From NCBI GenBank assembly GCA_029862165.1, contig JAOTXU010000009.1, positions 65,497 through 129,496 on the forward strand: a DNA stretch of 64,000 nucleotides, written 5' to 3'. This DNA comes from Gammaproteobacteria bacterium. GTDB lineage: Bacteria > Pseudomonadota > Gammaproteobacteria > Steroidobacterales > JABDKV01. Of this stretch, positions 45,890 through 61,179 are shown piece after piece. Position 1 is the first letter of the stretch; every line of letters begins with the position of its first letter. The position numbers and the translations under genes are program-made. The notes beneath the pieces were generated by a model. It was not told the origin of the DNA. It made no database searches and was given only the letters and a program-made list of their open reading frames with translations.

Positions 45890-45963
45890 TGGAGCGGGTG
45901 ATGGGAATCGAACCCACGTTATCTGCTTGGGAAGCAGAAGTTCTACCATTGAACTACACCCGC
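45890..45963 (-). tRNA. glyU: tRNA-Gly (anticodon CCC), CCA encoded
   Basis: Reverse complement is GCGGGTGTAGTTCAATGGTAGAACTTCTGCTTCCCAAGCAGATAACGTGGGTTCGATTCCCATCACCCGCTCCA. It folds by hand into a cloverleaf with a 7-bp acceptor stem, anticodon loop TTCCCAA and T-loop TTCGATT. Confidence 0.9.
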
Positions 45964-46203
45964 GCTTTGTAAGTAAGATTGTAGCTGGCATCCTTGCCTT
46001 CGCGCCGCGTATTTTTGACCGCCGGCCCGGCCCTTCATGGCCGGGCGTTCGCCGCTATTCGCGGCTCACCCATTGAACTACACCCGCGCTTTGTAAGTAA
46101 GATTGTAGCCGGCATCCTTGCCTTCGCGCCGCGTATTTTTGACCGCCGGCCCGGCCCTTCATGGCCAGGCGTTCGCCGCTATTCGCGGCTCACCCATTGA
46201 ACT
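45946..46203. repeat. Tandem direct repeat, 124-nt period, 2 full copies + 10-nt third start; each unit begins with tRNA-Gly nt 1-18
   Basis: 45946-46069 versus 46070-46193 differ at 2 positions (45986 T/C and 46043 G/A). 46194-46203 repeats the first 10 nt again. Confidence 0.9.
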
Positions 46204-46279: not shown

Positions 46280-47305
46280 CTACCGCTTTATTGACGATAC
46301 GTATTCGCGGAGACTGGCCAGTCGGCCGCCGAGTGTTCGGCGGTTGCAGGCCATGAGGCCGCTTAGTTGACGGCAGTCACTCATCCAGTCGCGTTTGTAT
46401 GCCTCGTCGCCGACGCCGTAGTCAATCTCAGCAACACTTTCTACATCGATAGCGTGTTGGAACATGGTCTTCGATAGCAACGAGCCGATCGACAGGTCGG
46501 CAAATTTCTCGTCGTAGGCCAGCTTGTAGATCACCGCTCTATCGTGATCCTTAATCCAAAATTGGGTTGCCGCAGGTTGACCATCCACCCAGGCCAGACC
46601 TATGCGTGCCATATCGTGTTCATGACAGGTTCTGATCAAGGCTGACATGAATCCGGGAAACGGTTCGTCTTCTTTCCAGCTTGCCGCGTAGACTGTCTCG
46701 AAGTGTCTTATTGCTTCATCGAGTGTCAGACTTGCATCGGGATAAACAACAAGACGTAATTCGTGTTCTCTGGCCGCTTTGCGACTCTTGCGTTCAATGG
46801 TGTTGCGTAGTTGCGAGGCGAGTGCAGCGTAATATTGTTCAAACGATTGATCCGCAACGTCGAGATACCAGTTCTTGTATTGCTGCCATTCGTGAGCCGT
46901 AAAACGGACTGAATCCAGTGCCCGGCTGAGACTTTGCAGATCATCTTCACGCAGGTTTCGCAAATCTATAGTCGTAAGGCGTGGTCGCTCGGCCGCAATG
47001 AACGACAGGATTGAGCGCATGCCCGCATCGGTATCCAAACCACTCATGACAGGCCCGTACTCGGTCGTATAGAAATTGACCAGCCCTTTCAGTTTTTTAC
47101 GATCGTCCAGGCAATACAGTGCACATAGCGAGTCTCCGTGGGCTTGTTCGATATAGACACGGAGCCTTGCCGGTTCGAGCCCGTGTTGTACCAGACAGCG
47201 AAACCATTCGATGCTTTTAAAAAACGGTACGCCGGATCGAATCGAGAGCAGGCGTGCAGTGTCAGCGGGTATCGCGTTCAGATCCGAATAGAGTTCAACC
47301 GCCAT
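46280..47305 (-). CDS. FemAB-like / CelD-like GNAT acyltransferase (Acetyltransf_6-type)
   Basis: ATG at 47305 is separated by 1 nt from the upstream stop. About 341 aa, with the C-terminal pattern W..G.P.A..F.I.....VIYKLAYDE.F...S.G typical of the BioF2-like/FemAB-like GNAT family. Confidence 0.65.
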   Translation of the reverse strand: MAVELYSDLNAIPADTARLLSIRSGVPFFKSIEWFRCLVQHGLEPARLRVYIEQAHGDSLCALYCLDDRKKLKGLVNFYTTEYGPVMSGLDTDAGMRSILSFIAAERPRLTTIDLRNLREDDLQSLSRALDSVRFTAHEWQQYKNWYLDVADQSFEQYYAALASQLRNTIERKSRKAAREHELRLVVYPDASLTLDEAIRHFETVYAASWKEDEPFPGFMSALIRTCHEHDMARIGLAWVDGQPAATQFWIKDHDRAVIYKLAYDEKFADLSIGSLLSKTMFQHAIDVESVAEIDYGVGDEAYKRDWMSDCRQLSGLMACNRRTLGGRLASLREYVSSIKR

Positions 47306-47306
47306 G

Positions 47307-48524
47307 TCAGGCGGCCTGCGGGAACAATTCGCGTAAGGCGCCGGCAAGCCGTTCATAATGCGTTATACCGTTATAAAGCTGTGCCGAGATTCGAATCAGG
47401 CGTTTCGGGTGCGCCGGCCATGGGATCAGGGGGACCTCGATATTCCATCGTTGTAATAATTCCGCCTGTAGCGGGTCGCCATAAAGAGCCGAAGTCGAGG
47501 CCGGGCCGTCGCTGTCAGGCAACGGTAACGATGCCAGTGAGCCCAGCATCTCATCAGGGCAGGGCGCGTCGATTTCCAGCGCCGTACAAAGCAATCTGCG
47601 TCCTGCAATAACCGTCTGGTTGTTGTGTTTGCGAATGGCCGGCCAACCGCCTGGCAAGTATGACTCCAGTGTTTTCAATGCCACTGGCACACTGAGTACT
47701 GCAGTGGGATCCCAGGTGCCGGGCCAGTCAAATTCAACCAGATAGCGCGAGCGGTCGGTGCGCCGGCTATTGGCGCCATGACTAATGACTGGCGGGCGCA
47801 CGTTTTCCTGATGCTCCGGCTTCACGTGCAGAAAACCCGCGCCCTTCGGCGCACAGATCCATTTGTGACAGTTGGCGCTGTAGTAATCGGCGCCCAGCCC
47901 CGTGATATCGACATCAATCATGCCGGGTGCATGAGCGCCATCGACCAGCGTTTGCACACCGCGCTCACGCATCGCGGGAATCAGCGTTTCCAGTGGCATG
48001 ATTAGACCGGTTTGACTGGTGACGTGGTCAAGCAAGGCAATCCGTGTTTGATCGGTGACGCGGGACATGATGACGTCATGTATTTCGCTTAAACCGGTTG
48101 TTGGAAAGGGCACATTCACGGCCAACACTTTCGCTTTATCGCGCTGGGCAACAAATTCCAATACATTACGACATGCGTTGTATTCATGATTGGTAACCAG
48201 CAACTCGTCACCGGGCGAAAATTTCAGAGACTGGACGACAGCATTGACGCCGGTTGTAATGTTGGGCAACCATGCCAAATCCTTTGCTTCGCAATTGACA
48301 AAGGCAGCCAGTTCGGTGCGTGCGTCATCGAGCATCTGCTCCAGATCACGTACGTAGAAAGTAACGGGTTGGCGTTCGAGGCGATCGCGCAGCGATTGCT
48401 GGTATTGCAGTACCTCACGCGGGCAGCTGCCAAAAGAGCCATGGTTGAGAAAAACGACGTCCGGATCGAGCATCCAGTGGTTTGCAAGATTTTCTGTTGC
48501 GGAACTCACGCGCGCATTATCCAC
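47307..48524 (-). CDS. Class V aminotransferase-fold PLP-dependent enzyme (isopenicillin-N-epimerase / cysteine-desulfurase-like)
   Basis: 405 aa. FLNHGSFGSCP N-terminus, and SANCHKW containing the PLP-binding Lys. Confidence 0.8.
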   Translation of the reverse strand: MDNARVSSATENLANHWMLDPDVVFLNHGSFGSCPREVLQYQQSLRDRLERQPVTFYVRDLEQMLDDARTELAAFVNCEAKDLAWLPNITTGVNAVVQSLKFSPGDELLVTNHEYNACRNVLEFVAQRDKAKVLAVNVPFPTTGLSEIHDVIMSRVTDQTRIALLDHVTSQTGLIMPLETLIPAMRERGVQTLVDGAHAPGMIDVDITGLGADYYSANCHKWICAPKGAGFLHVKPEHQENVRPPVISHGANSRRTDRSRYLVEFDWPGTWDPTAVLSVPVALKTLESYLPGGWPAIRKHNNQTVIAGRRLLCTALEIDAPCPDEMLGSLASLPLPDSDGPASTSALYGDPLQAELLQRWNIEVPLIPWPAHPKRLIRISAQLYNGITHYERLAGALRELFPQAA

Positions 48525-48547
48525 TGCCGGCGCGTGTAATGGCAGTG

Positions 48548-49768
48548 TCAGCCGCCAAAGAGTGAGCGTACTTTGGCCGGTTTCAGGCCAAATTCTTCCA
48601 GCGTATATCGATGACGACCATGTTTGTCCTGCGGGTTGGCCGACAGAAACAGCCGCATGTTTTGCTCGGCCTCATCTGTCAGGCGCATCATGAGACCCGA
48701 ATAAAGTGTGCGAACCGCTTGAATCGGATCGGCAACCAGCGTCTCGTAGTCCAGATCCACCACGGCGTGACCTGTCCTGAATTGATTTGCGCGTTGCCAG
48801 CCCTCGGCCCACCATTTCACCCAGTAATCTGCGACCGCTGCGATGTCGACTACATCGCTGAATGCTGAACGCAGTATTACGCCATGACTCGCTATCGATG
48901 CCGCGACTTTCAGCGGGTCTCGTTGGGTAAAAACAAACCGTGCATCGGGATAGACCTTTGCCAATGCAGCTAATGTGTACAGATGTGCTGGTGCCTTGAG
49001 ACACCAGCGGCCAGCTTCGCCATGGATCTGCAGGTGCTGTAAAAACACTTTGTGATAATGCATTGCAGCGAGCCCATCCTGCTTGTCCAGCCACTTCTGG
49101 TAGGACGGAACATTAAACGTCGTGTGAAATTCGACACTGGCAAATTCATGTGCGGTTATCGCGATGCATTCCTGTGGCAACTCCGCACCGTTCGGGTGCA
49201 CCGTACGAAAACGTGGTGCTAACCGGTCTACCCATTTCAACATACTGTCGGTGCGCTCTATGCGACGCCGGTCATGGGCTCGTTTTTGGCCGGGCAGCGG
49301 ACACGGCAGCATGACTTCCCAGGTCCACGGCACCCGTATCGCCGGGTCTTGTGCCAACAGGCCGTGCAATAAGGTGCTGCCGGAGCGGGGCAGCCCACTG
49401 ATAATCACCGGTGCCGGGATAGTTTGTTGAGCTATGCGTACATCGCTTGAACGAGCGGCCTGTACCTGCAGCCGGTTAACCAACAGCTGGGTCAGGTGAG
49501 AACGCGCCGACATGCGTCCAACAAAATTTAGTTCTGCCTCATCTTCCAGCGATTCACATAGCCTGAAAAAACCATCACGCCAACTGTCCAGCCCGAAGTC
49601 CGACAGATTCGTTTTTTGTACCGCTTTCTTGGTAAGTCCATCCGGATTCAGCGATCCGCCAAGCCCGGGCAAGTGCCCTGCGAGGTTCGCCATACGCAGA
49701 TAAAACGGACGGTGCTGATATTTGTTGCGGGTCATGCTCGCGTTGGTTAGGGTTGCCAGCGGTCTCAT
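48548..49768 (-). CDS. Sulfotransferase family protein with ~190-aa N-terminal extension
   Basis: PAPS 5'-phosphosulfate-binding loop GLPRSGSTLLHGLL. The start is uncertain (ATG at 49768 or 49735; the longer ORF would overlap the hpnG start). Confidence 0.7.
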   Translation of the reverse strand: MRPLATLTNASMTRNKYQHRPFYLRMANLAGHLPGLGGSLNPDGLTKKAVQKTNLSDFGLDSWRDGFFRLCESLEDEAELNFVGRMSARSHLTQLLVNRLQVQAARSSDVRIAQQTIPAPVIISGLPRSGSTLLHGLLAQDPAIRVPWTWEVMLPCPLPGQKRAHDRRRIERTDSMLKWVDRLAPRFRTVHPNGAELPQECIAITAHEFASVEFHTTFNVPSYQKWLDKQDGLAAMHYHKVFLQHLQIHGEAGRWCLKAPAHLYTLAALAKVYPDARFVFTQRDPLKVAASIASHGVILRSAFSDVVDIAAVADYWVKWWAEGWQRANQFRTGHAVVDLDYETLVADPIQAVRTLYSGLMMRLTDEAEQNMRLFLSANPQDKHGRHRYTLEEFGLKPAKVRSLFGG

Positions 49769-49789
49769 GAGTTTAGCCCGGATACGCCG

Positions 49790-50524
49790 ATGACTCTCGA
49801 TAAACTGCGGAATAAGGCGTCCGAACGTGTAGGTGTAATTGCAGCGATGCCGGTCGAGGCCCGAGCGCTGGGTGCGAGCGAACCATTCAATCAAATCCTC
49901 GAACTCACAAGCAACACTTATGCGTACGTGTGCGGCGCCGGGCCGGATAACGCACGTCGTGCTATGCAAGAACTGCTCACTATGAATGTCGCCGGTGTCG
50001 TGAGCTGGGGTACAGCCGGTGGTTTGACACCGAACCTGGTACCCGGTACCGCGTTATTGAGCAAGAAGGTTATATGTGCCGATTCGGCCTATGAGACTGA
50101 TGGCTATTGGGCAGGACGTCTGCGGGATCACTTTAACTCGATTTTGACAATCAATGATGAGGCGATCTACTCGAGCGGCCAGCTTGTTTCCGGTATGGCC
50201 GAGAAAAAAAGATTGGCTAACGAGACCGGCGCGGTCGCCGTTGATATGGAGTCTGGTGCAATTGCAAAGACCGCCGTTGCAGCGGGTGTGCCTTTTGTTT
50301 GCGTGCGCGCAGTCGCCGATCCTTTTGACTTTAGCTTACCCGGCGCACTGAGCAGTGCGCTTGACGAAAAGGGTTTCCCGACAATCAACGGGGCACTGCA
50401 GGGCTTGCTCCGCCGGCCCGCCGATATTGTCCCGATGTTGCGGCTGGCAGTGTATTTCCGCAAGGCGACCAGGACACTGACCGTCATGTCCCGTGTTGCC
50501 GGTCCAGGTCTGCTCGGGCCTTGA
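49790..50524 (+). CDS. hpnG: Hopanoid-associated nucleoside phosphorylase/nucleosidase (HpnG-like)
   Basis: PNP/MTAN family pattern (GVIAAMPVEA..., DMESGAIA). It is the first gene of the hpn operon. Confidence 0.7.
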   Translation: MTLDKLRNKASERVGVIAAMPVEARALGASEPFNQILELTSNTYAYVCGAGPDNARRAMQELLTMNVAGVVSWGTAGGLTPNLVPGTALLSKKVICADSAYETDGYWAGRLRDHFNSILTINDEAIYSSGQLVSGMAEKKRLANETGAVAVDMESGAIAKTAVAAGVPFVCVRAVADPFDFSLPGALSSALDEKGFPTINGALQGLLRRPADIVPMLRLAVYFRKATRTLTVMSRVAGPGLLGP

Positions 50525-53064
50525 ATCACACGGCATATATCGACACGCCGGGGCGGTTGGTCCGTCGTTGGGTCGCGTTAGTCATTCGTTTTGCGCCAAT
50601 AATCGTGGTGCTGGCAGTTTTGTCGATTGCGCCGATGGCGTGGTTTGTTGCGACCCACTTAGGCATCAATACGAGCACGGCTGACATGATTGCCAAACGC
50701 CTGCCATGGCGACAAGCGTTTAGTGATTACCGTGCGGCGTTTCCACAACTAGATCACAACCTCGTTGCGGTGATCGATGCGCCGGACGCAGATCACGCTG
50801 ATGATGCCCGCGATGCGCTCTACATGGCGATGGCAGCGCGTGACGACTTATTCCATGAAGTGTTTGCACCCGGTAGCGACGTGTTTTTTCGTCAAAATGC
50901 ATTCTTATACTTGAGTTCCGAGCAGTTGGCGGACCTGGCTGACCGATTAGCCCAGGTTCAGCCCTTTCTTGCACAATTGGCTGACGACCCGACCACGGCC
51001 GGTTTGTTCAATGCCATTGCTCGCGGATTGGCTGCGGACGGCACCGACATTGATGTCTCGTTGCTGTTGACCAGAATTGCCGACGTCGTCGAAGCGCTCA
51101 ACAACGATAAAGAACACTCGCTTTCATGGCAGGCATTGATGAGCGACGAAGCACCATTACCCGCCCGCCGTGTCGTCGTTTTCCGTCCGAGGATGGATTT
51201 CGCAAGACTGCATCCGGCACAGGATGCTGTGGCAGCAATCCGTGAGCAGCAACAGATTATTTCCGCAGCGCTGCCATTAGACGCAAAGATTCGGCTTACC
51301 GGGCCGGTTGCGTTGGAGTACGAAGAATTGAGCAGTGTTTCGCGTGGCGCCCGGACGGCAGGCTTACTCGCACTGGTCATGGTGCTGGTGATTTTGTACT
51401 TCGCGATGCGTTCTGTATGGCTCGTATGTGCCACATTGTTGACACTCATCACTGGTTTGCTGGCCACAGCTGTTTTTGCAGCGCTCGCGATTGGTTCACT
51501 CAATCTCATCTCCATTGCGTTTACTGTCTTGTACATCGGCTTAGGCGTTGATTTTGCGATTCACTATAGTCTGCGTTTCCGGGAAGCACTGGCCGCAGGG
51601 GCCAGCACAGACGATGCGTTAATAGACAGCGCAGGTGATGTCGGAGCCTCGTTGGTGCTGTGTGCCGTCACGACATCAATCGGATTTTTTGCGTTTTTCC
51701 CGACGACTTTTCGTGGCGTGTCGGAGCTGGGAATTATTTCCGGCACGGGCATGTACATCAGTCTCATCGTGACCCTGACTTTGTTGCCTGCATTGCTCAA
51801 GGTGCTTCCCAAATCACAGAGTTTTGCATCGGCCGTCTCGCTAACGGGCCATATGCAACGCATTAGCCGCAGCCGTTTGCTTTTGCCGGCGGCTGCCGTA
51901 CTTAGCATTGCAGCGCTGGCAGCACTGCCGTACGCAGGCTTTGACAGCGATCCGATCAACCTGCGTGACGCTACCAGTGAATCGGTCGCCACCTATTACG
52001 ATTTGCTGGACGATCCACAATACTCACCGCGCTCATTATCAGTTATCGCTAACGACGCCAGTGATGTGACGCGCATACGTGCCGAGTTAAGCAATCTAGA
52101 CACCGTCAAATCCCTGTCCTCAATCGGCGATTTTGTGCCGACCGAGCAACCCGACAAGTTGGCGTTGATCGAAGAGATTGCATTAATAATGGGGCCGGAT
52201 TTATCGGTTACAGATACTTCTGTCGATACCGGCCGCGATCGTGCAGCGATTTCCAAGCTGTCGGATGTCCTGCAAAACGAGAAGTCGCAGCAAGCCGCTC
52301 GCCTGGCACGGGCGCTGGACGGTTTTCTGCCAAATGCTGCTACCGGGACCGACCCACGGTTAACGCTACTGAACCGAATGCTCGTCGGCACCTTGCCGGG
52401 GCGTTTGTCTGCGCTCAATGATGCATTGAGCGCCGACCGGGTTGCCCTCGAGGATTTGCCGACTGCCTTGCGTGACCGCTGGATTAGCGCGGATGGTCGC
52501 CGCCGTGTCGAGATACAGACCGATGTCGCAAAGACGGAGTTTGTCGATTCAGTACGTGCTGTGATACCTGCTGCGACGGGTCTGCCGGTTTTACAACGTG
52601 AGGGCGGCCGTGCCGTAGTGGGCGCGTTTCGGCAGGCATTCATCACCGCCTTCGTATTGATCTCGCTAATATTGCTTGTGTTGCTGCGCAATGCCCGCCA
52701 GGTTGTCGTCGTTCTGGTGCCATTGATCGCAGCGGGTCTGGGTACGGTCGCAGTCATGGTGTTAGTGGATCAGCCGTTCAATTTCGCCAACGTTATAGCT
52801 TTACCGTTGTTGCTCGGGGTTGGTGTGGACAATGGAATTCACATGGTGCATCGCTGGCGCAGTGGTGCTGTTGACCTGCTGGCCAGCAGTACCTCGCGTG
52901 CGATTTTTTTTAGTGCGCTGACTACCATTGCGAGTTTCGGTAATCTGGCGTTTTCCAGTCACCCGGGCAGCGCGAGTATGGGCAGGGTGCTCACTATCGG
53001 CATGATTCTGACAACGGCATTCAGCGTTTTGCTCATTCCTGCATTGCTGGATCGGCAACGATGA
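50521..53064 (+). CDS. hpnN: Hopanoid-associated RND/MMPL transporter (HpnN-like)
   Basis: 847 aa with two 6-TM bundles and two periplasmic loops (MMPL architecture). TTGA overlap with hpnG. Confidence 0.8.
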   Translation: MNHTAYIDTPGRLVRRWVALVIRFAPIIVVLAVLSIAPMAWFVATHLGINTSTADMIAKRLPWRQAFSDYRAAFPQLDHNLVAVIDAPDADHADDARDALYMAMAARDDLFHEVFAPGSDVFFRQNAFLYLSSEQLADLADRLAQVQPFLAQLADDPTTAGLFNAIARGLAADGTDIDVSLLLTRIADVVEALNNDKEHSLSWQALMSDEAPLPARRVVVFRPRMDFARLHPAQDAVAAIREQQQIISAALPLDAKIRLTGPVALEYEELSSVSRGARTAGLLALVMVLVILYFAMRSVWLVCATLLTLITGLLATAVFAALAIGSLNLISIAFTVLYIGLGVDFAIHYSLRFREALAAGASTDDALIDSAGDVGASLVLCAVTTSIGFFAFFPTTFRGVSELGIISGTGMYISLIVTLTLLPALLKVLPKSQSFASAVSLTGHMQRISRSRLLLPAAAVLSIAALAALPYAGFDSDPINLRDATSESVATYYDLLDDPQYSPRSLSVIANDASDVTRIRAELSNLDTVKSLSSIGDFVPTEQPDKLALIEEIALIMGPDLSVTDTSVDTGRDRAAISKLSDVLQNEKSQQAARLARALDGFLPNAATGTDPRLTLLNRMLVGTLPGRLSALNDALSADRVALEDLPTALRDRWISADGRRRVEIQTDVAKTEFVDSVRAVIPAATGLPVLQREGGRAVVGAFRQAFITAFVLISLILLVLLRNARQVVVVLVPLIAAGLGTVAVMVLVDQPFNFANVIALPLLLGVGVDNGIHMVHRWRSGAVDLLASSTSRAIFFSALTTIASFGNLAFSSHPGSASMGRVLTIGMILTTAFSVLLIPALLDRQR

Positions 53065-54047
53065 GAGCGCTGGTTACCGGCGCGACAGGTTTTATCGGTT
53101 CTGCGGTGGCGCGTGCCCTGATAAATGCCGGCCACCAGGTTCGCGTCTTGGCACGCCCGTCCAGCGATCACGCGAATCTTGCCGGAATAGACGTGGAAAT
53201 CGTTCAGGGCGACCTAATCGATGCCGGCTCGATGTTGCACGCGGTCGTCGGGATGGACATCGTGTTTCATGTCGCAGCCGATTACCGACTTTGGGTGCCC
53301 GACCCGGATGTGCTTTATCAGATCAACGTACATGGCACGCGCTCTTTGCTCGAAGCTGCACAACTTGCTGATGTAAAACGCGTCGTGTACACCAGTAGTG
53401 TTGCGACACTTGGAATCAATGACGATGGCACGTCATCAGACGAAACAACAGCGGTGTCAGTGGCCGACATGATCGGTCACTACAAACGCTCCAAATTTCT
53501 GGCGGAGGAACTTGCGTTTGAGGCTGCGGCCGGTGGACAGGACGTTGTAGTCGTCAATCCCTCTGCGCCGGTCGGGCCAAGGGACATCAAGCCCACACCG
53601 ACAGGGAAAATGATCGTCGATGCCGCCGCGGGTCGAATGCCGGCCTATGTCGATAGTGGATTGAACATCGTACATGTCGATGATGTGGCACAGGGCCATC
53701 TGTTGGCTGCAATGAGTGGTCGTTCCGGCCGCCACTACGTGCTCGGGTGTGAGAACATGACTTTGGCAGAGATTTTCTCCACGGTGGCAGCAATGACCGG
53801 CGTTCGTGCACCAAAAATCAAGTTACCGGTATCTTTGCTATTGCCGGTTGCTCACGTCGCCGAAGCTGTGGCAGGCATAACCCACAAAGCGCCGATGGTG
53901 ACGGTAGATGGCGTAAAGCTCGCCCGCAAGCACATGTATTTTTCCAGTCAACGCGCAATCGATGAATTGGGTTACCAGCCCAGACCAGCTATGGAGGCGT
54001 TAAGAGACGCAGTGGACTGGTTTTCGGAAAACGGATACTTGCAGTGA
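53061..54047 (+). CDS. hpnA: Hopanoid-associated NAD-dependent sugar epimerase (HpnA-like)
   Basis: MRALVTGATGFIGSAVARAL..GH.VRVL.RP.SD..NL.G.DVEIV.GDL and FHVAADYRLW, which is the HpnA-type SDR pattern. ATGA overlap with hpnN. Confidence 0.8.
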   Translation: MRALVTGATGFIGSAVARALINAGHQVRVLARPSSDHANLAGIDVEIVQGDLIDAGSMLHAVVGMDIVFHVAADYRLWVPDPDVLYQINVHGTRSLLEAAQLADVKRVVYTSSVATLGINDDGTSSDETTAVSVADMIGHYKRSKFLAEELAFEAAAGGQDVVVVNPSAPVGPRDIKPTPTGKMIVDAAAGRMPAYVDSGLNIVHVDDVAQGHLLAAMSGRSGRHYVLGCENMTLAEIFSTVAAMTGVRAPKIKLPVSLLLPVAHVAEAVAGITHKAPMVTVDGVKLARKHMYFSSQRAIDELGYQPRPAMEALRDAVDWFSENGYLQ

Positions 54048-55021
54048 AACAAGCGACAGCACTCGCGCATCCCAATATTGCTCTGGTGAAATACTGGGGC
54101 AAACGTGACACTGCATTGAATCTACCCGCGGTGGGTTCGATCTCTATCACGCTCGACACTTTGCATACCAAAACGAAAGTGCGTTTTGATGAAACCCTGG
54201 ACAGTGATGTTTTTTTGCTCGACGGCGCAAGCAACGCCGGTGAGACACGCCGCGTGGTCGATTGTCTGAGCCTGTTGCGCGAGATCGCGGGCGTACAAAC
54301 GCATGCCGAAGTGCGCAGCGAAAACAGTTTTCCTACAGGTTCCGGTCTGGCATCTTCGGCATCGGGCTTTGCTGCCCTGGTTGTGGCTGCCGACGCGGCC
54401 CTGGATCTCGGGCTGGATCAAAGCCGGTTGTCAGAACTGGCACGTCGTGGTTCCGGTTCAGCGGCACGTTCCGTACTCGGTGGTTTTGTCGAGTTGCATC
54501 ATGGCGAGTGGGAAGACGGTGCTGATTGCATCGCTACATCTTTGTTGGATGCTGCTGAGTGGCCACTGGCGGTCACCGTTGGTGTGATATCGCGCAAGGC
54601 AAAAAAAGTCGGCTCGACAGCAGGTATGGAACTGACGCGCGAAACGTCATCCTATTATTCGGCATGGGTGGATGGTGCCGAAGCTGATCTGTTGGCAGCA
54701 AGAGTTGCGATTGTTGAACGCGACTTTCAGAAACTGGCTGACGTAAGTGAGCTGAGTTGCTTGAAGATGCATGCGCTGGCGATGTCGTCACAACCGGGGT
54801 TGATGTACTGGCATGGCGCCACGGTGGAGGGCATCCACCGCATTCGACAGTTGCGTCGTGGCGGACATGCGGTGTTTTTCACCATCGACGCCGGTCCGCA
54901 ACTCAAAGTGATTTCAACGCCAGAGGCCGTGGCAACAGTGACCGACGCCTTAAGCGATATTTCGGGCGTGCAGGACGTTTTGCTTACCGGTTTGGGCGAG
55001 GGAGCACGAGTCGTTGACTAG
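54044..55021 (+). CDS. mvaD: Diphosphomevalonate decarboxylase
   Basis: NIALVKYWGKRD, SFPTGSGLASSASGFAAL and ARRGSGSAARS motifs. GTGA overlap with hpnA. Confidence 0.9.
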   Translation: MKQATALAHPNIALVKYWGKRDTALNLPAVGSISITLDTLHTKTKVRFDETLDSDVFLLDGASNAGETRRVVDCLSLLREIAGVQTHAEVRSENSFPTGSGLASSASGFAALVVAADAALDLGLDQSRLSELARRGSGSAARSVLGGFVELHHGEWEDGADCIATSLLDAAEWPLAVTVGVISRKAKKVGSTAGMELTRETSSYYSAWVDGAEADLLAARVAIVERDFQKLADVSELSCLKMHALAMSSQPGLMYWHGATVEGIHRIRQLRRGGHAVFFTIDAGPQLKVISTPEAVATVTDALSDISGVQDVLLTGLGEGARVVD

Positions 55022-55979
55022 CACGGCAACAGCACCCGGGAAGCTAATCCTGATTGGCGAGTTTGCCGTCTTAGAAGGCGCGCCCGCCATCGTGATGGCA
55101 ATCGACAGGCGGGCACAGGTGCGCGTTACATCGGCGCAAACAAACCTGGTGACGGCGCCAGAGATATGTGAGCGGGAAGTAAGCTTTAGTGTTGACGCGG
55201 ATCGCCGCGTTAGCTGGCTCGGCGTTGATCCTTCCCAGAGCGTTCGACTGGAAATACTGGCGCAGGTAATTGCGAGATATTGGTCCGGCACACCTGTGCA
55301 CATTGAAACCGATACCGCGGCATTTTTTGAAGACGGTATCAAAATGGGTTTTGGCTCCAGCGCGGCGCTGACAGTCGCGGCGTCCGCTGCACTGCGTCGC
55401 AAAGTTCCGGATTTGGCAGAGCTGATCGAAACACACAAGGTCGCGCAGGGCGGGCGTGGTAGCGGATTCGATATCGCGGCGAGTTTGAACGGTGGTGTCA
55501 TTAACTTCAGGTCACAACCGCCCGAGGCAACTCCGCTGAGTTTGCCGGATGGTTTGCATATGCGCTGTGTCTGGACTGGCCATGCCGCATCGACGTCGGC
55601 GTTTCTCCGTGGGCTGGATGCACTCGGCGAGCGACGCAACGCGATTGACGAGCTGGCCGGTAGCGCAAGATCCGCCGTTAGCGGCCTCGACAACAGTCCT
55701 GCGTCCTGGGTGCAGGCTGTACAGAATTATTCGAAGGCTTTGAAACGATTCGCGGCACAGACATCACTGCCGATTTTTTCCGGTGGCCACACCGAGATTG
55801 CGGAGGTCGCAAATGCTAACAATGTGGCTTATAAGCCCAGCGGTGCCGGGGGCGGAGATCTGGGTATTGCAGTCAGCATGGATGCCGCACCTCTGGAGTC
55901 GTTTAGCCGAGCGCTGAGCGCGACCGGCGTGCGGATCGTGCGACTGGTTGTGGACAAAAAGGGCCTAATCTTGAGTTAG
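55014..55979 (+). CDS. Phosphomevalonate kinase (GHMP family)
   Basis: TTG start overlapping the mvaD stop by 8 nt. APGKLILIGEFAVLEG, GFGSSAALTVA, GSGFDIAAS and KPSGAGGGDLGIA motifs. Confidence 0.8.
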   Translation: MTSTATAPGKLILIGEFAVLEGAPAIVMAIDRRAQVRVTSAQTNLVTAPEICEREVSFSVDADRRVSWLGVDPSQSVRLEILAQVIARYWSGTPVHIETDTAAFFEDGIKMGFGSSAALTVAASAALRRKVPDLAELIETHKVAQGGRGSGFDIAASLNGGVINFRSQPPEATPLSLPDGLHMRCVWTGHAASTSAFLRGLDALGERRNAIDELAGSARSAVSGLDNSPASWVQAVQNYSKALKRFAAQTSLPIFSGGHTEIAEVANANNVAYKPSGAGGGDLGIAVSMDAAPLESFSRALSATGVRIVRLVVDKKGLILS

Positions 55980-56012
55980 TTGAGGCCCAGGACTTTAAGC
56001 TATTATTGGCCG

Positions 56013-57134
56013 ATGTACGACGCTCAGACAGCCCGGCAAGACACCCCCGATACCACCCCGGTTGCCGTTGCCGCCGGTCCGCCGTCGCCCGAAGATATCG
56101 CTTTGCAAGATGAGCTGCTGCCCGGCGTTTCCAGAACTTTTGCATTGACCATCCCGCAGTTGCCGGAACCGTTGCGCGTGCCGGTGACCAATGCATATCT
56201 GTTATGCCGCATTGCCGACACTATCGAAGATGAACCAACTCTAACTCCGGCCGAGAAACGACAATTTCACAAGCAGTTTGTCGCCGCTGTACAGGGCAAG
56301 ACTTCGGCGACAGAATTTGCCAAATCACTGCACCCGCGTCTGTCTAAGACTACGCTTGCAGCGGAACGCGAACTCATATTGCATTCGCAGCAGGTGTTGC
56401 ACACGACGCGCGCATTACCGGCACGACAACGCGATTCGCTGGAACGTTGTATTTCGATCATGTGTGACGGCATGTCGCAGTTTCAGAATACGGAAGGACT
56501 CAGTGGTCTGGAAGACCTGCATGAGATGGAACGCTATTGTTATTTTGTTGCCGGTGTCGTGGGCGAAATGCTTACTGAATTGTTTTGTGATTATTCACCG
56601 GATATTGAGGCAACCCGCCCCGAGTTAATGAATCTCTCGGTTGCGTTTGGTCAGGGTCTGCAAATGACCAACATCCTCAAGGATATATGGGAGGACCGGA
56701 CTCGCGATGCGTGCTGGTTACCTCGCGATGTGTTTGAAGAGGTAGGTTGCGATCTCGGCAGCCTGGACCCAGAGTCGCGCAAGGGGTTTGGTGAAGCCCT
56801 CAATCAACTCATCGGAGTGGCGCATTTGCGATTGCGTAGCGCGCTTTCCTATACGCAGTTGATTCCCTCTGCCGAGACCGGGATACGCCGTTTTTGTTTG
56901 TGGGCTATAGGCATGGCCGTACTTACATTGCGCAAGATTCACCAGAACCCGGATTTTGTCGCCGGTGGCGAGGTCAAAATCTCCCGTCGCGCGGTTAAGT
57001 CAACTATCCTGGCTGCCAACCTCACAGCGCCCAGTAACGCAGCACTAAAAATGGCTTTCGATCTGGTCGCCCGCGGTCTACCGTTGGCCGACGGGGAGCA
57101 GTATCAGGCGATGAGCAACAGCCCCAACGGCTAG
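56013..57134 (+). CDS. sqs: Squalene synthase (farnesyl-diphosphate farnesyltransferase), single-enzyme Sqs type
   Basis: SRTFALTI, CRIADTIEDE (DTxED motif), YCYFVAGVVGEML and LQMTNILKDIWED. The start is ATG at 56013, or TTG at 55980 abutting the upstream stop. Confidence 0.8.
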   Translation: MYDAQTARQDTPDTTPVAVAAGPPSPEDIALQDELLPGVSRTFALTIPQLPEPLRVPVTNAYLLCRIADTIEDEPTLTPAEKRQFHKQFVAAVQGKTSATEFAKSLHPRLSKTTLAAERELILHSQQVLHTTRALPARQRDSLERCISIMCDGMSQFQNTEGLSGLEDLHEMERYCYFVAGVVGEMLTELFCDYSPDIEATRPELMNLSVAFGQGLQMTNILKDIWEDRTRDACWLPRDVFEEVGCDLGSLDPESRKGFGEALNQLIGVAHLRLRSALSYTQLIPSAETGIRRFCLWAIGMAVLTLRKIHQNPDFVAGGEVKISRRAVKSTILAANLTAPSNAALKMAFDLVARGLPLADGEQYQAMSNSPNG

Positions 57135-57225
57135 AAAGCAATATTGCCGGGATGCATCACAGGATCGGAATCGTCATAATAGCCAGCCGCCCGGCCGGCT
57201 AGTCCCCAAACTCAGGTACAGCGTA

Positions 57226-59478
57226 ATGCACACATCACGCATCCCACGGTTCTACAAAATGTCAGTCGCTGAACGCGTTCGTGCCGCACGCGATTTGGGT
57301 GTCCTCAATCGCGAGGACTATCGCGCGTTGACCAGTGGCGATCACATGCTAACCGTCAACCGCGCCGACAAGATGATCGAAAACGTCATCGGTGTGATGG
57401 GATTGCCGGTGGGTTTGGGTCTCAATTTTGTTATTAATGAAAACGAGTACGTAATACCGCTGGTAGTGGAAGAACCCTCAATCGTTGCCGCGCTGAGTTC
57501 TGCTGCCAAGCTCATCAGAAAATCGGGCGGCTTTGGTGTCGAAAGCACCGATTCGGTGCTCATCGGGCAGATTCAGGTGGTCGATTTGCGGCACACGACG
57601 CGTGCACGACAGGCCTTATTGGATAACAAACAAGAAATAATCAATCTGGCAAACAGCCTGCACCCGAACATGGTGGCGCGTGGCGGCGGCGCCAAAGACA
57701 TGGAAGTGTTAATACATGCCGGCGCCAGTGAACAAGTCGGTGATATGTTGGTCGCGCACCTGTTGGTGGACACACGCGATGCAATGGGTGCGAATCTTGT
57801 CAACACAATGTGCGAGGGCGTAGCGCCATTGGTTGAAAAAATCACCGGCGGAAAGGTTTTTTTGCGCATATTGTCGAATCTGGCCGACCGATCGCTCGTA
57901 CGCGCTCACTGCAGCATTCCGGTCGATAACCTCGGTGGCAAAGGCTACGACGGCGAAGAAGTGCGTGACGGAATTGTACTGGCCAGCGAATTTGCTGCGG
58001 CTGACCCTTACCGGGCGGCGACACATAACAAAGGCGTTATGAATGGTATCGATGCCGTCGCCCTGGCGACCGGCAACGATTGGCGTGCTATTGAGGCCGG
58101 TGCGCATGCTTATGCAGCTCGTGGTACGCATTACACGTCGCTGAGCCGTTGGACACGTGGCCCGGATGGCGCGTTGATCGGTGATCTCGAAATGCCGCTC
58201 AAGGTTGGAACAGTCGGTGGCCCCCTGGAGTCCAATCCGACTGTGGCGATGAATATGCGTATGCTGGACGTAAAAAGCTCACGCGAGCTGGGTGAGGTCA
58301 TGGGTGCTGTTGGGCTGGCACAGAATTTCTCTGCACTACGTGCACTGGCGACTGAGGGCATACAAACGGGCCACATGACACTGCACGCCCGTAGTGTTGT
58401 GACGGCGGCCGAAGCGCCACCGGAAGTATTCGATACCGTGGTCGAGCGATTGATCGAAAGTGGAACGATCAAGATCTGGAAAGCACGGGAGTTGGTAACC
58501 GAAGTCGTTGAACAAAGCTCGCCGGGAGGCACATCGGGTCTGAAGCCGTTAGACGCAGAAGGCGCGAAGGCCGGCAACGGAAAGATTATTCTGTTGGGCG
58601 AACACTCCGTTGTTTATGGTCGTCATGCCATCGCCGCACCAGTAGAACTGGCGGTACAGGCGCGTGTGCATGATTGCGAAACGGGTGTCCATCTGGTCGT
58701 GCCGCGCTGGGGCGTGGAATACCGGATGCATGAGCAAGCCGCCAAACGCCGTTCGTTTGAAATTTCTGCGGGTTTGATACTGGAGAAACTGGGATTGACC
58801 GGGCGGGCCATGCGTATCGAGGTCTATCCAAACGTCCCGCGCGCAATGGGTCTGGGTGGCTCCGCAGCGACCGCCGTGGCGATAATCCGGGCGTTGGATG
58901 ATCACTTCGAACTGGGGCTGGACGAAAATGAAATCAACCAGCTGGCTTACGAGAGTGAAAAGGTAGCTCACGGTAACCCGTCCGGTATTGATAACACGGT
59001 GGCGACCTTTGGCAAGACATTGTTGTTCAAGCGCGGCGATCCACCGCTGATGCATGAGCTGCGCTTTCCACAAAAGATACCTGTCGTCATCGCCATGAGC
59101 GGCGTCGAGAGTCTCACAGCCAAGATGGTCGCGCGTGTGCGTGCCGCATGGGAGAAAAACAAAACCTTGTACGAGCGCATCTTCGATGAGATCGATGCGC
59201 TAGCGTTACATGCGGTTGAAGCGCTGAAGGAAAACAATATCGGCCAGCTGGGCGAGTTGATGAATATCAATCAGGGTCTGCTAAATGCCCTACAGGTCTC
59301 CTGTTGGGAAGTGGAGGAACTAATTCAAATCGCCCGTGAGAACGGCGCATCGGGTGCGAAGCTGACCGGTGGCGGTGGCGGCGGTTCCATCATCGCGATT
59401 TGCCCGGAAGATCCGCAACGCGTGGTCAAAGCTATCCGCGATGCCGGTTACCAGGCCATGGAGGTCGAGATTGGCTGA
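57226..59478 (+). CDS. Bifunctional fusion: class II HMG-CoA reductase (N-terminal ~430 aa) :: mevalonate kinase (C-terminal ~310 aa)
   Basis: N-terminal part has ENVIG..LP.G, PLVVEEPSIVAA and DAMGANLVNT. A Ser/Gly/Pro linker ...EQSSPGGTSGLKPLDAEGAKA follows. The C-terminal part has GKIILLGEHSVVYG, GLGGSAATAVA and KLTGGGGGGSIIA. It is one uninterrupted 750-codon frame. Confidence 0.85.
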   Translation: MHTSRIPRFYKMSVAERVRAARDLGVLNREDYRALTSGDHMLTVNRADKMIENVIGVMGLPVGLGLNFVINENEYVIPLVVEEPSIVAALSSAAKLIRKSGGFGVESTDSVLIGQIQVVDLRHTTRARQALLDNKQEIINLANSLHPNMVARGGGAKDMEVLIHAGASEQVGDMLVAHLLVDTRDAMGANLVNTMCEGVAPLVEKITGGKVFLRILSNLADRSLVRAHCSIPVDNLGGKGYDGEEVRDGIVLASEFAAADPYRAATHNKGVMNGIDAVALATGNDWRAIEAGAHAYAARGTHYTSLSRWTRGPDGALIGDLEMPLKVGTVGGPLESNPTVAMNMRMLDVKSSRELGEVMGAVGLAQNFSALRALATEGIQTGHMTLHARSVVTAAEAPPEVFDTVVERLIESGTIKIWKARELVTEVVEQSSPGGTSGLKPLDAEGAKAGNGKIILLGEHSVVYGRHAIAAPVELAVQARVHDCETGVHLVVPRWGVEYRMHEQAAKRRSFEISAGLILEKLGLTGRAMRIEVYPNVPRAMGLGGSAATAVAIIRALDDHFELGLDENEINQLAYESEKVAHGNPSGIDNTVATFGKTLLFKRGDPPLMHELRFPQKIPVVIAMSGVESLTAKMVARVRAAWEKNKTLYERIFDEIDALALHAVEALKENNIGQLGELMNINQGLLNALQVSCWEVEELIQIARENGASGAKLTGGGGGGSIIAICPEDPQRVVKAIRDAGYQAMEVEIG

Positions 59479-59500: not shown

Positions 59501-60058
59501 GTGGTGTCCAGTGAGAGTGAGCGGCTGGTACTGGTCGACGGGCAGGATCAGGAAATAGGCTTCGAATCCAAAGGAACTGTGCATGACGGCACAGGCCTTT
59601 TGCATCGCGCCTTTTCGCTTTTCATTTTCAATAAACAAGGCGAATTGCTAATGCAGCAACGCAGCGCCGCCAAGCGCCTATGGCCGATGTTTTGGTCCAA
59701 CAGTTGCTGCAGCCATCCACGCGAAGGCGAGGACATCGATGATGCAACCCATCGCAGACTGCGCGAAGAACTGGGCATGCGAAGCGACTTGCAGTTTTTG
59801 TACCGCTTTCGTTATCACGCGCAGTTTGGTGAGCTCGGTGCCGAACACGAGTTTTGCTGGGTCTACATTGGTCGTAGTGACGACATGATTCGGGTCAATC
59901 GCAACGAAATTGCCGCCTGGCGCTGGATCGCCATTGAAGATCTGGAGCGTGAGATGGGCGAACAGCCGCACGGTTTTACGCCATGGTTTAGAATGGAGTG
60001 GGAACGTATCCGCGGTGAATTCGCCGCTGAACTGGCAACATTAGCGGGCAATATATGA
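59501..60058 (+). CDS. idi: Isopentenyl-diphosphate delta-isomerase, type 1 (Nudix)
   Basis: LHRAFSLFIFN..GELLMQQRS..K..WP..WSNSCCSHP..GE. There is no in-frame ATG after the upstream stop, so the start is GTG at 59501 or TTG at 59471. Confidence 0.85.
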   Translation: MVSSESERLVLVDGQDQEIGFESKGTVHDGTGLLHRAFSLFIFNKQGELLMQQRSAAKRLWPMFWSNSCCSHPREGEDIDDATHRRLREELGMRSDLQFLYRFRYHAQFGELGAEHEFCWVYIGRSDDMIRVNRNEIAAWRWIAIEDLEREMGEQPHGFTPWFRMEWERIRGEFAAELATLAGNI

Positions 60059-61179
60059 GCATACCTCTCAAACAACAATACACGGTAGGCAGCTACATCC
60101 TGCGTCAGAAATTGAAGAGGCGTGAGCGTTATCCATTGGTATTGATGCTCGAACCCTTATTCCAATGCAATCTGGCCTGCGCCGGTTGCGGCAAGATCGA
60201 TTACGAAAAAGATATCCTGGCACAACGCGTGTCGGTACATGATGCATTGCGTGCGGTGGACGACTGCGGGGCACCGATAGTCTCGATCGCCGGTGGCGAA
60301 CCATTAATCCACAAAGAGTTACCGCAGATCGTCGCAGGCATAATTGAGCGCAAGAAGTATGTTTATCTTTGCACCAACGCTATTCTGTTGCGTAAACGCA
60401 TGGATGACTATCAGCCGTCACCCTATCTGACTTTCTCGATACATCTCGATGGCAACCGCAAACGTCATGACGAGTCGGTTTGCCAGGTCGGCGTCTTCGA
60501 CAAAGCGGTGCTGGCTATCGAGCAGGCCAAAGAGCGCGGTTTCCGTGTCACAGTGAACTGCACGTTGTTTAACAGCGAGGATCCACAGGACGTAGCCGAG
60601 TTTTTTGACCACGCCATGGGAATGGGTGTTGAGGGTGTGACGGTTTCGCCCGGTTACAGTTATCAGCATGCACCACGCCAGGATGTCTTCCTGCAACGCA
60701 AGCAGAGCAAAGAACTGTTTCGCGAAATTTTCCGGCGTGGCAAGGAAGGTAAACGAGACTGGCGTATCAACCAGTCCAGCCTGTTCCTCGATTTTCTTGC
60801 AGGCAACCAGACATATCATTGCACGCCGTGGAGTAATCCCACCTACAACGTATTTGGCTGGCAGAAACCGTGTTATTTGCTAGTCGATGAGGGTTACGTC
60901 GACAGTTATGCGGGGCTGATGGAAAATACACCATGGGATGAGTACGGCACCGGTAACAATCCGAAGTGCGATAACTGCATGGCGCACTGTGGTTATGAGG
61001 GAACGGCCGTTAACGACACGTTTGCGAATCCACTGAAGGCGCTGAAAGTTGCGCTACGCGGACCACGCACCGACGGACCGATGGCACCGGAAGTGCCGAT
61101 TACCTACACTTCGCGGCCAGTACCTGCAGTCGGCATCCCGGTCGATCAAATCGGTCGCAGCAACGGCGCCTCCCAGTAA
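60055..61179 (+). CDS. hpnH: Hopanoid biosynthesis radical SAM protein HpnH (adenosylhopane synthase)
   Basis: YPLVLMLEPLFQCNLACAGCGKIDY radical-SAM cluster motif with an HpnH-type N-terminus. ATGA overlap with idi. Confidence 0.9.
   Translation: MSIPLKQQYTVGSYILRQKLKRRERYPLVLMLEPLFQCNLACAGCGKIDYEKDILAQRVSVHDALRAVDDCGAPIVSIAGGEPLIHKELPQIVAGIIERKKYVYLCTNAILLRKRMDDYQPSPYLTFSIHLDGNRKRHDESVCQVGVFDKAVLAIEQAKERGFRVTVNCTLFNSEDPQDVAEFFDHAMGMGVEGVTVSPGYSYQHAPRQDVFLQRKQSKELFREIFRRGKEGKRDWRINQSSLFLDFLAGNQTYHCTPWSNPTYNVFGWQKPCYLLVDEGYVDSYAGLMENTPWDEYGTGNNPKCDNCMAHCGYEGTAVNDTFANPLKALKVALRGPRTDGPMAPEVPITYTSRPVPAVGIPVDQIGRSNGASQ

Follow-up and report, generated by a model that had tools for sequence, protein, structure and literature searches.

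Three co-directional genes on the minus strand, separated by spacers of 23 and 1 nt, lie beside a gene cluster for hopanoids, sterol-like membrane lipids, in the 64,000-nt stretch of gammaproteobacterial DNA analysed here (below, the window). They encode a PAPS sulfotransferase (ST; 48548..49768), a class-V PLP enzyme (AT5; 47307..48524) and a tandem-GNAT protein (46280..47305). The public gene calls on the same contig give products of 406, 388 and 341 aa, and the base composition of the trio is native (GC 0.52–0.56 against 0.555 for the window). Downstream, the operon is bounded by a tRNA-Gly(ccc) gene at 45890–45963 (−), found by ARAGORN and Rfam, which is not a functional part of it: the tRNA gene follows the trio in two of the related loci, L001 (where it is inverted) and L004, but is absent in a third, L177, and is not conserved with the operon. 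The observation made in the original prediction, a tightly packed operon of these three families between the hopanoid genes and the tRNA, is thus confirmed.

On the other side the trio is divergent from hpnG (49790..50524, +; hopanoid-associated phosphorylase, TIGR03468, 192 bits against a cut-off of 187), the first gene of a hopanoid/mevalonate operon. It is followed by hpnN (50521..53064, +; RND hopanoid transporter, TIGR03480, 892 bits against 752) and hpnA (53061..54047, +; hopanoid-associated SDR, TIGR03466, 494 bits against 368). Embedded in the same operon (54044..59478, +) are mevalonate-pathway and squalene-synthase genes identified by Pfam hits: MVD (54044–55021), a GHMP kinase (55014–55979), SQS (55980–57134) and an HMG-CoA reductase/GHMP kinase fusion (57226–59478). 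A NUDIX gene (59369–60058) precedes an hpnH-type radical SAM gene of the adenosylhopane synthase family (60055..61179, +; Radical_SAM plus DUF3463), whose product is 74% identical to its counterparts in the ST loci L008 and L009. No shc, hpnL or hpnM is present in the 64-kb window. The divergent intergenic region (49769..49789) measures 21 nt, or 54 nt if the ST starts at its more likely ATG at 49735, and no sigma-70-like site or Rfam element was found in it.

The ST matches Pfam Sulfotransfer_3 (PF13469, 136.1 bits against a cut-off of 27, E=2.8e-39) and aligns over its full length with PDB 2z6v (1.8e-43) and 2zq5 (2.8e-40). The 5'-phosphosulfate loop GLPRSGSTLL and the 3'-phosphate motif RDP...S are conserved in an alignment of 27 homologues, with P127, R128, G130, T132, R283 and S291 invariant and P285 present in at least 90%. 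The original prediction had assigned to this protein an unexplained N-terminal domain of about 190 aa; this, however, is an artefact and not an added domain. The 473-aa ORF starting from TTG 49969 is over-extended and would overlap hpnG, while the real protein is 395–406 aa long: translation from ATG 49768 gives 406 aa, but residues 1–12 of this form are disordered in the AF2 model (pLDDT 92) and the homologues start at the position of M12, making ATG 49735 (395 aa) the more likely start. The remaining N-terminal region, about 115 aa, is helical, conserved in over 500 full-length homologues and covered by the solved fold of mycobacterial Stf1/Stf9. In a Foldseek comparison the model matched 2zq5 with TM 0.78/0.87 and 2z6v with TM 0.79/0.82 over 371–381 columns, whereas the next hits had a TM of about 0.33.

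AT5, 405 aa long from GTG 48524 (388–400 aa in public calls), matches Aminotran_5 (PF00266, 101 bits, E=7.8e-29) and belongs to the C-S lyase/isopenicillin-N-epimerase-like subgroup. It is not a cysteine desulfurase by curated profiles: the best score, for SufS, was 78 bits against a cut-off of 475, and all the SufS/IscS/NifS/CsdA models remained far below their cut-offs. The best matches of known structure were the C-S lyase Egt2 (4.7e-32), 8dl5/9aza, C-DES and PvdN. The PLP lysine in the SANCHKW motif (the HK) is invariant in 59 sequences. The trio copies are monophyletic but differ from 45 outgroup sequences by only four conservative fixed changes, so that AT5 shows no sign of an active site altered relative to its widespread family or re-tooled for a lipid substrate. 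The amination of the hopanoid side chain suggested in the original prediction is therefore doubtful.

The GNAT protein (341 aa) matches Acetyltransf_6 (PF13480, 104 bits, E=1.1e-29), while FemAB_like (PF04339) gave only a weak match, 16.4 bits against a cut-off of 27. Its AF2 model (pLDDT 95), however, is predicted to have a FemX/MprF-like fold: the top 28 Foldseek hits in the PDB (TM 0.49–0.64) are FemABX-type and MprF/aaPGS-type transferases, including FemX, FemA and Sbb17/Sba18, plus one uncharacterised protein. The protein thus looks like an aminoacyl-tRNA-type transferase rather than a plain N-acyltransferase. A subfamily of 13 proteins at 46–66% identity was found, and those members whose surroundings could be read or matched sit next to AT5; at this level of identity or above, the GNAT was seen only in this operon. 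None of the three proteins matches a named Hpn family model (HpnA–HpnR) or any other curated equivalog in NCBIfam.

The main result of our analysis is the synteny of the ST. Its gammaproteobacterial relatives (39–71% identity) lie inside or beside hopanoid/isoprenoid clusters in 16 loci with about seven gene orders, although these counts are not phylogenetically independent. Among the gammaproteobacterial ST loci of 39% identity or more recovered by a species-level genome scan, 8 of 10 carry hpn or isoprenoid genes within 10 kb, and the other two have under 1 kb of upstream sequence; protein-based look-ups add the window and the loci L001, L004, L177, L005, L006, L175 and L008. The arrangements observed are ST-AT5-GNAT divergent from hpnG-N-A; polyprenyl synthase-ST divergent from (SQS)-hpnG-N-A; hpnG-N-A-SQS-NUDIX-hpnH-hpnM-x-ST-shc-dxs; hpnM-hpnN-hpnA-hpnL-ST; hpnM-hpnN-ST-PRTase (apt); hpnN-hpnL-ST with hpnM and mlaA on the opposite strand; and MVA-SQS-ST. 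The HpnL (312 and 306 bits against 196) and HpnM (216 against 160) proteins pass the curated cut-offs, a fusion of an ST with an HpnL-type PF03706 domain also exists, and in the NJ tree the window ST groups with the other hpn-linked copies. In contrast, ST relatives at 40–47% identity outside the Gammaproteobacteria (Verrucomicrobiota, Rokubacteria, Desulfobacterota) are not next to hpn genes, and neither is one relative of 50% identity, L176.

Some of these loci leave room for the possibility that the ST acts on another lipid derived from the same isoprenoid supply, such as a hydroxylated quinone tail (as in sulfomenaquinone), a polyprenol or a squalene derivative, rather than on a hopanoid. 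In L029 and L056 only mevalonate genes and squalene synthase lie nearby, in L005, L006, L021, L029 and L175 the immediate upstream gene is a polyprenyl synthase, and in L176 a UbiA prenyltransferase fragment lies next to the ST. Moreover, the one acceptor named for a mycobacterial Stf enzyme in the papers that we read is the menaquinone isoprenoid tail sulfated by Stf3. We consider this reading unlikely, since several loci (hpnM-hpnN-ST, hpnN-hpnL-ST and hpnM-hpnN-hpnA-hpnL-ST) place the ST among hopanoid-specific genes with no SQS or prenyl synthase nearby, in L008 and L009 it lies between hpnH/hpnM and shc, and no P450 or other hydroxylase accompanies it, as Cyp128 does Stf3.

The complete ST-AT5-GNAT order with its tight spacing is found in the window, L001–3, L004 and L177, and is divergent from hpnG in every trio locus with enough flank (4 of 4, all in one sublineage). 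The condition under which the original prediction was to be abandoned, a wide occurrence of the trio in genomes without hopanoid genes, was thus not observed. The link to hopanoids is strong for the ST and extends by operon conservation to AT5 and GNAT. It is nevertheless possible, though in our view unlikely, that only the ST belongs to the hopanoid pathway, and that AT5 and GNAT are a separate two-gene unit, for example amino-acid metabolism plus an unrelated acyl or aminoacyl transfer, captured downstream in one lineage and retained by inertia. The ST occurs without them in most hpn-linked loci, and AT5 is 60–65% identical to thousands of stand-alone genes in varied contexts, from which its active site has not diverged. 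On the other hand, the order and the near-zero spacers persist across lineages whose ST identity falls to 66% (full trio read in L001, L004 and L177), further short contigs with ST identity down to 59%, or GNAT identity down to 46%, carry pairs of the three genes (ST+AT5 or AT5+GNAT), and the genes downstream of GNAT meanwhile vary freely.

The alternative also raised in the original prediction, that the trio is an exopolysaccharide or cell-surface (or LPS) modification cassette merely adjacent to, and perhaps co-regulated with, the hopanoid operon, has a real basis. The next-closest relatives of the GNAT, at 35–44% identity, lie in XrtA/PEP-CTERM exopolysaccharide loci, with ligase_PEP_1, hydr1_PEP, hydr2_PEP and the EpsB_2 glycosyltransferase among their neighbours; an MBOAT (DltB-like) gene set follows the trio in L001–3 and an arylsulfotransferase gene in L004; and sulfated polysaccharides are common in marine bacteria. 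This explanation does not, however, fit the locus and appears the least likely of those considered. No glycosyltransferase, polysaccharide export or exosortase gene lies in or next to the trio in any of the four lineages, the exosortase-system genes seen around the GNAT relatives (ligase_PEP_1, hydr1/2_PEP, EpsB_2) are absent around it in all lineages, none of the 80 exosortase-type GNAT loci has AT5, ST or hpn genes, and the conserved partners of the ST family are HpnN, HpnM, HpnL, SQS and shc, not sugar genes. The PEP-CTERM signals said to lie nearby were not found either, a crude scan of the window ORFs having revealed no PEP-CTERM tails.

Taken together, the data partly support the interpretation originally offered, and the best reading (with a probability of roughly 0.55) is a hopanoid head-group tailoring operon. 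The gene structure, the family assignments and the conserved linkage are shown by the analysis, whereas the sulfotransfer activity and its acceptor, the hopanoid product and the aminoacyl-tRNA donor are inferred from context and predicted fold alone. In this view the enzymes would work on the cytoplasmic side of the inner membrane, before HpnN exports the lipid. The ST would use PAPS to place a sulfate ester on a hydroxyl of an extended hopanoid, a bacteriohopanepolyol made through HpnH/HpnG, yielding an anionic hopanoid sulfate, the bacterial counterpart of a sterol sulfate; this step is well supported by context. The GNAT would transfer an aminoacyl group, most likely from aminoacyl-tRNA, or an acyl group onto the same head group, in parallel with MprF acting on phosphatidylglycerol and with the known N-aminoacyl aminobacteriohopanetriols. 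Aminoacylation is plausible from fold and operon conservation, but because the nearest outgroup of the GNAT lies next to an acyl-CoA ligase and an ACP, the donor could be acyl-ACP or acyl-CoA instead. The weakest point is AT5, which would keep the chemistry of its family and probably supply, remodel or recycle the amino-acid-derived part rather than act on the triterpene itself, its unchanged active site arguing against a lipid substrate and leaving its role unresolved. In related lineages the ST would work without AT5 and GNAT, paired instead with the flippase-like membrane protein HpnL, which suggests modification followed by flipping and export through HpnM/HpnN. Sulfated hopanoids or a hopanoid sulfotransferase did not appear in the papers that we searched.

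Among the known systems, the ST is closest to mycobacterial Stf1 (M. tuberculosis, PDB 2ZQ5) and STF9 (M. avium, PDB 2Z6V), with which it shares Sulfotransfer_3 membership and full-length similarity in sequence and predicted fold, including the helical N-terminal region. It is, however, only 26–29% identical to them, comes from a different phylum and has hopanoid genes rather than cyp128 as genomic partners. Acceptors of Stf1 and STF9 have not, to our knowledge, been described. Stf3 belongs to the same subfamily as Stf1. M. tuberculosis Stf3 sulfates the hydroxylated isoprenoid tail of menaquinone-9 (PMC7404182).

The GNAT model is best matched by the aminoacyl-tRNA-dependent transferases MprF/aminoacyl-phosphatidylglycerol synthases and FemX/FemA (TM 0.53–0.64), although the sequence identity is 9–16% and no fused membrane domain is present. 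MprF modifies a membrane-lipid head group and combines the transferase with a flippase-like domain of the same family as HpnL, the partner of the ST in other lineages. In sequence, the closest relative outside the trio is the exosortase-A locus GNAT found next to ligase_PEP_1, an ACP and dCO2ase_PEP1, which is 35–44% identical over the full length with the same conserved motifs, but comes with its own ligase and carrier protein, lacking in the trio. AT5 has its best structural counterparts in the Egt2, C-DES, PvdN and isopenicillin-N epimerase group, several members of which (PvdN, IPN epimerase, Egt2) act on the free amino-acid end of a larger conjugate; the very large bacterial isopenicillin-N epimerase-like family is not known to have an established substrate.

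Finally, the trio may be compared with the HpnO route to aminobacteriohopanetriol and the N-aminoacyl aminotriols of Rhodomicrobium and Variibacter. HpnO is described as an ArgD (N-acetylornithine aminotransferase) homologue (PMC4263297). ArgD-type enzymes are of a different aminotransferase class from AT5, which matched no HpnO or ArgD-type model; AT5 could still work like HpnO, but the lack of active-site change argues against a new substrate. The known producers are Alphaproteobacteria, and no sulfate is known on these lipids. At the same time, N-tryptophanyl, N-ornithinyl and N-phenylalanyl aminotriols exist whose genes are unknown (PMC12583986, PMC4263297), and amino-BHPs occur in species without hpnO. 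These head-group decorations need an amine-forming enzyme and an aminoacyl transferase, and the trio offers candidates for both.

Three co-directional minus-strand genes occupy this part of the window: a sulfotransferase (ST) at 48548-49768, a class-V PLP enzyme (AT5) at 47307-48524 and a GNAT protein at 46280-47305, with spacers of 23 nt and 1 nt between them. Pfam assigns them to Sulfotransfer_3 (2.8e-39), Aminotran_5 (7.8e-29) and Acetyltransf_6 (1.1e-29, with a sub-threshold FemAB_like match), respectively, and public gene calls for the identical contig agree (406, 388 and 341 aa). On the other strand, starting 21 nt from the ST's ATG at 49768, lie hpnG, hpnN and hpnA, all of which exceed the NCBIfam cut-offs, followed by mevalonate-pathway genes, squalene synthase (SQS), a NUDIX gene and an hpnH-type radical SAM gene. 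A complete mevalonate (MVA) pathway (MVD, a GHMP kinase, an HMG-CoA reductase/kinase fusion and the NUDIX gene; 54044-60058) is embedded between hpnA and hpnH in this gammaproteobacterial hopanoid operon, an arrangement conserved in related loci (L001, L005, L006, L021, L175 and others), while no shc, hpnM or hpnL was found in the 64-kb window. The observation made in the original prediction is confirmed. The base composition of the three genes is native and no match was found in the plasmid collection, so that a plasmid or mobile origin found no support. The search for a riboswitch, promoter or terminator in the operon yielded nothing beyond the tRNA, consensus sites being at chance level.

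The original prediction also ascribed to the ST an unexplained N-terminal domain, and this claim did not hold. The 473-aa ORF on which it was based starts at a TTG inside hpnG and is over-extended, whereas the homologues begin at the position of M12 of the 406-aa form, and residues 1-12 are the only disordered part of a confident structural model (pLDDT 92). The remaining helical region of about 115 aa is conserved in more than 500 full-length homologues and is part of a solved fold. By sequence the ST aligns end to end with PDB 2z6v (1.8e-43) and 2zq5 (2.8e-40), and the model superposes on sulfotransferase STF1 from M. tuberculosis (TM 0.78/0.87) and STF9 from M. avium (TM 0.79/0.82), while all other sulfotransferases fall to a TM of about 0.33. 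The PAPS-binding loop and the RDP...S motif are conserved, nearly all positions invariantly. The protein is therefore an ordinary member of the Stf1/Stf9 family, probably active as far as can be inferred from sequence and predicted structure, and not a two-domain novelty.

The core result concerns the genomic location of the sulfotransferase. The closest ST relatives that could be placed on contigs (loci designated by L numbers) all sit in hopanoid clusters. At 66–71% identity the whole trio is conserved and divergent from hpnG-hpnN-hpnA (L001-3, L004, L177). At 51–55% identity the ST follows a polyprenyl synthase and is divergent from (SQS)-hpnG-hpnN-hpnA-MVA genes, without AT5 or GNAT (L005, L006, L175), and at 46–49% identity it lies between hpnH-hpnM and squalene-hopene cyclase in the order hpnG-N-A-SQS-NUDIX-hpnH-hpnM-x-ST-shc-dxs (L008, L009). 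Small uncharacterised genes without a family match flank the ST in these trio-less loci, namely a 171–180-aa putative lipoprotein downstream of the ST (L005 11274-11789 and L006 11244-11786; 66% identical between the two) and a 126–127-aa protein upstream on the opposite strand (L008 9499-9879, L009 9397-9780). The possibility that AT5 and GNAT are unrelated to the function of the ST has to be considered here, although we regard it as unlikely.

A scan of one genome per species returned 80 loci, which were compared with the Hpn proteins of the window by tblastn, and every locus with hopanoid or isoprenoid neighbours is gammaproteobacterial. The gene orders include hpnM-hpnN-hpnA-hpnL-ST (L019), hpnM-hpnN-ST-PRTase (L047), hpnN-hpnL-ST with hpnM opposite (L043 and L049, with mlaA also opposite in L043), MVA-hpnA-hpnN followed by SQS, a prenyl synthase, a PRTase and ST (L021), and MVA-SQS-ST (L029 and L056). 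In all, 8 of the 10 gammaproteobacterial loci at 39% identity or more are linked in this way, and the other two contigs end within 1 kb upstream of the ST. HpnM (216 bits against a cut-off of 160) and HpnL (312 and 306 bits against 196) pass the curated cut-offs. A single-copy cluster occupies well under 1% of a genome, and sixteen linked loci in about seven arrangements therefore cannot be chance, although the loci are not fully independent. In an NJ tree the window ST groups with the other hpn-linked copies. The phosphoribosyltransferase gene (PF00156; 50–58% identical between loci) sits next to hpnG or the ST in several of the hopanoid clusters (L001 9357-9884, L004 2701-3225, L021 9323-9844, L047 11168-11725) but is absent from the window; it could plausibly salvage the adenine released from adenosylhopane by HpnG. 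An acceptor other than a hopanoid, namely another isoprenoid lipid, remains a rival explanation, but in our view an unlikely one.

This linkage has its limits. ST relatives at 40–47% identity in Verrucomicrobiota, Rokubacteria and others have unrelated neighbours, and hopanoid linkage of the non-gammaproteobacterial ST clades was not found apart from sub-threshold HpnL-like, HpnJ-like and MMPL neighbours in Desulfobacterota. One 50% relative (L176) lies among fragmented transporter genes, the stretch at 8758-11971 containing two Na/H exchanger pieces and a 177-aa UbiA fragment next to the ST; these split genes are probably frameshifts of a long-read assembly, so that the context of this copy is unreliable. 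In Desulfobacterota and Geobacter the ST is followed by an HpnL-like, flippase-like membrane protein (134–138 bits, below cut-off), and an MMPL transporter or a B12 radical-SAM protein with its best but sub-threshold match to HpnJ is sometimes also nearby. The ST is paired with HpnL or an HpnL-like protein in L019 (9033-11197, where hpnL overlaps the ST start), L043 (8858-11164), L049 (1580-3582), L013, L015, L017, L022, L023, L025 and L030, the pairing being above cut-off in two gammaproteobacterial loci, and the two are fused in one protein (P0080, PF13469+PF03706). As the role of HpnL is unexplained, this may be the first functional clue for it. The family as a whole therefore looks lipid-directed, while the hopanoid assignment, which is drawn from context, is secure only for the gammaproteobacterial branch.

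The GNAT has 13 relatives at 46–66% identity, and those whose contigs could be read, or matched by length and source, sit next to AT5. The next tier, 80 metagenome loci at 35–44% identity (L092-L171), never has AT5, ST or hpn genes nearby, and its conserved neighbours are an acyl-CoA ligase, an ACP, a PLP decarboxylase, glycosyltransferases, an amidotransferase and two hydrolases. NCBIfam names these as exosortase-A/PEP-CTERM system genes: ligase_PEP_1 (640 bits against a cut-off of 592), hydr1_PEP, hydr2_PEP and EpsB_2, all above cut-off, and dCO2ase_PEP1, just below cut-off. Although the GNAT family lacks an NCBIfam model, it is a regular member of these loci, lying between a second GNAT and the ACP upstream and ligase_PEP_1 and dCO2ase_PEP1 downstream, which suggests an unrecognised acyl or aminoacyl transfer step in that system. 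The alternative put forward in the original prediction, an exopolysaccharide or cell-surface modification cassette, thus reflects the wider family of the GNAT but not this locus, and a crude tail scan found none of the PEP-CTERM signals said to be nearby; we consider a surface-polysaccharide cassette unlikely.

The structural model of the GNAT is very confident (pLDDT 95), and its 28 best PDB matches are almost all aminoacyl-tRNA-dependent transferases (Sbb17/Sba18, FemX, FemA and MprF/alanyl- and lysyl-PG synthases), plus one uncharacterised protein, at TM 0.49–0.64, while acyl-CoA tandem GNATs score lower. A functional link between this Fem-like protein and the tRNA-Gly(ccc) located 317 nt downstream of it, as with the special tRNA-Gly of staphylococcal Fem enzymes, was considered and rejected, since the tRNA is inverted in L001, separated from the trio by variable genes in L001 and L004, and absent in L177. 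Between the GNAT stop and the tRNA lies a 124-nt tandem repeat (45946-46203; 2.1 copies, 98% identical), each unit of which carries the first ~18 nt of the tRNA plus its upstream promoter-like region, so these are partial 5' tRNA duplications. The stretch between the GNAT and the conserved backbone (DEAD helicase, thiS-thiG-trmB-marC) is a variable slot near tRNA-Gly (window 40781-45371; L001 13549-17307; L004 7115-8908). It holds a 901-aa beta-propeller/CCP-like protein and a 564-aa NosD/beta-helix protein in the window, an unknown 413–416-aa gene, an MBOAT (DltB-like) and an unknown 238-aa gene in L001-3, a PAPS-independent arylsulfotransferase (PF05935) in L004, and a 572-aa Lactamase_B protein on one further contig (P0134). 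Two of these are sulfate-related.

AT5 matches best the Egt2 C-S lyase, an 8dl5-type enzyme, C-DES and PvdN, and it reaches no cysteine-desulfurase equivalog, so that this identity was rejected at the equivalog level. It has thousands of relatives at 60–65% identity annotated as isopenicillin-N epimerase in unrelated contexts. The trio copies are monophyletic, yet they differ from 45 outgroup sequences by only four conservative fixed substitutions, with 104 of 388 positions invariant. We read this as unchanged chemistry on a small, amino-acid-like substrate, which weakens the case for AT5 as a re-tooled hopanoid aminotransferase and argues against the attractive idea that it replaces HpnO.

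On inspection, all three proteins lack signal peptides or membrane segments, and their presumed donors (PAPS, and aminoacyl-tRNA or acyl thioesters) are cytoplasmic. They would therefore act on hopanoids in the inner leaflet, before export by HpnN. In this view the ST would sulfate a side-chain hydroxyl of a bacteriohopanepolyol, a step well supported by context; the Fem/MprF-like GNAT would plausibly add an aminoacyl (or acyl) group to the head group; and AT5 may supply, remodel or recycle the amino-acid part, which is the least certain of the three proposals. The ST-HpnL pairing elsewhere suggests modification followed by flipping. What the analysis itself establishes is the family assignment of the three proteins and their synteny, whereas the rest, including sulfotransfer and its acceptor, the donor and acceptor of the GNAT, the reaction of AT5 and the hopanoid product, is inference. 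The interpretation offered in the original prediction is supported only in part.

Taken further, these data may indicate that marine and estuarine sediment Gammaproteobacteria make an undescribed class of charged hopanoids, namely bacteriohopanepolyol sulfates and, in this lineage, sulfated and aminoacylated forms, a tentative reading to which we would assign a probability of roughly 0.4. Standard hopanoid work-ups (acetylation, periodate cleavage, positive-ion MS) would have missed such lipids, which would be a direct biological route for sulfur-bearing hopanoids into sediments. Hopanoids are the bacterial counterparts of sterols and are major molecular fossils, and the catalogue of their head groups drives both membrane biology and biomarker interpretation. 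Full-text searches found no hopanoid sulfotransferase and no sulfated hopanoid. The 2025 survey of biohopanoids contains no occurrence of "sulfat" or "sulfo", and it states that no obvious new candidate genes were evident near hpn clusters and that the enzymes for several known derivatives are unknown (PMC12583986). The locus described here gives three concrete candidates, of which the sulfotransferase has unusually strong comparative support. If the reading is right, it predicts an anionic hopanoid class that current analytical protocols would overlook, assigns a working partner to HpnL and offers a candidate for the long-unknown aminoacyl transferase of the N-aminoacyl aminotriols.

The enzyme families involved are all known, as is the hpn pathway framework, and what is new is the proposed tailoring branch and the predicted product class. 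There are precedents for the individual steps. Stf3 sulfates the hydroxylated isoprenoid tail of menaquinone-9 (PMC7404182). Stf3 is a paralogue of Stf1. N-tryptophanyl, N-ornithinyl and N-phenylalanyl aminotriols are known, while their genes are unknown (PMC12583986, PMC4263297), and amino-BHPs occur without hpnO (PMC12583986). MprF couples a tandem-GNAT lipid aminoacylase to a flippase-like domain of the HpnL family. By analogy, the ST, with either the flippase-like HpnL or a MprF-like GNAT, would form a hopanoid head-group modification module comparable to MprF for phospholipids and to sterol sulfation in eukaryotes.
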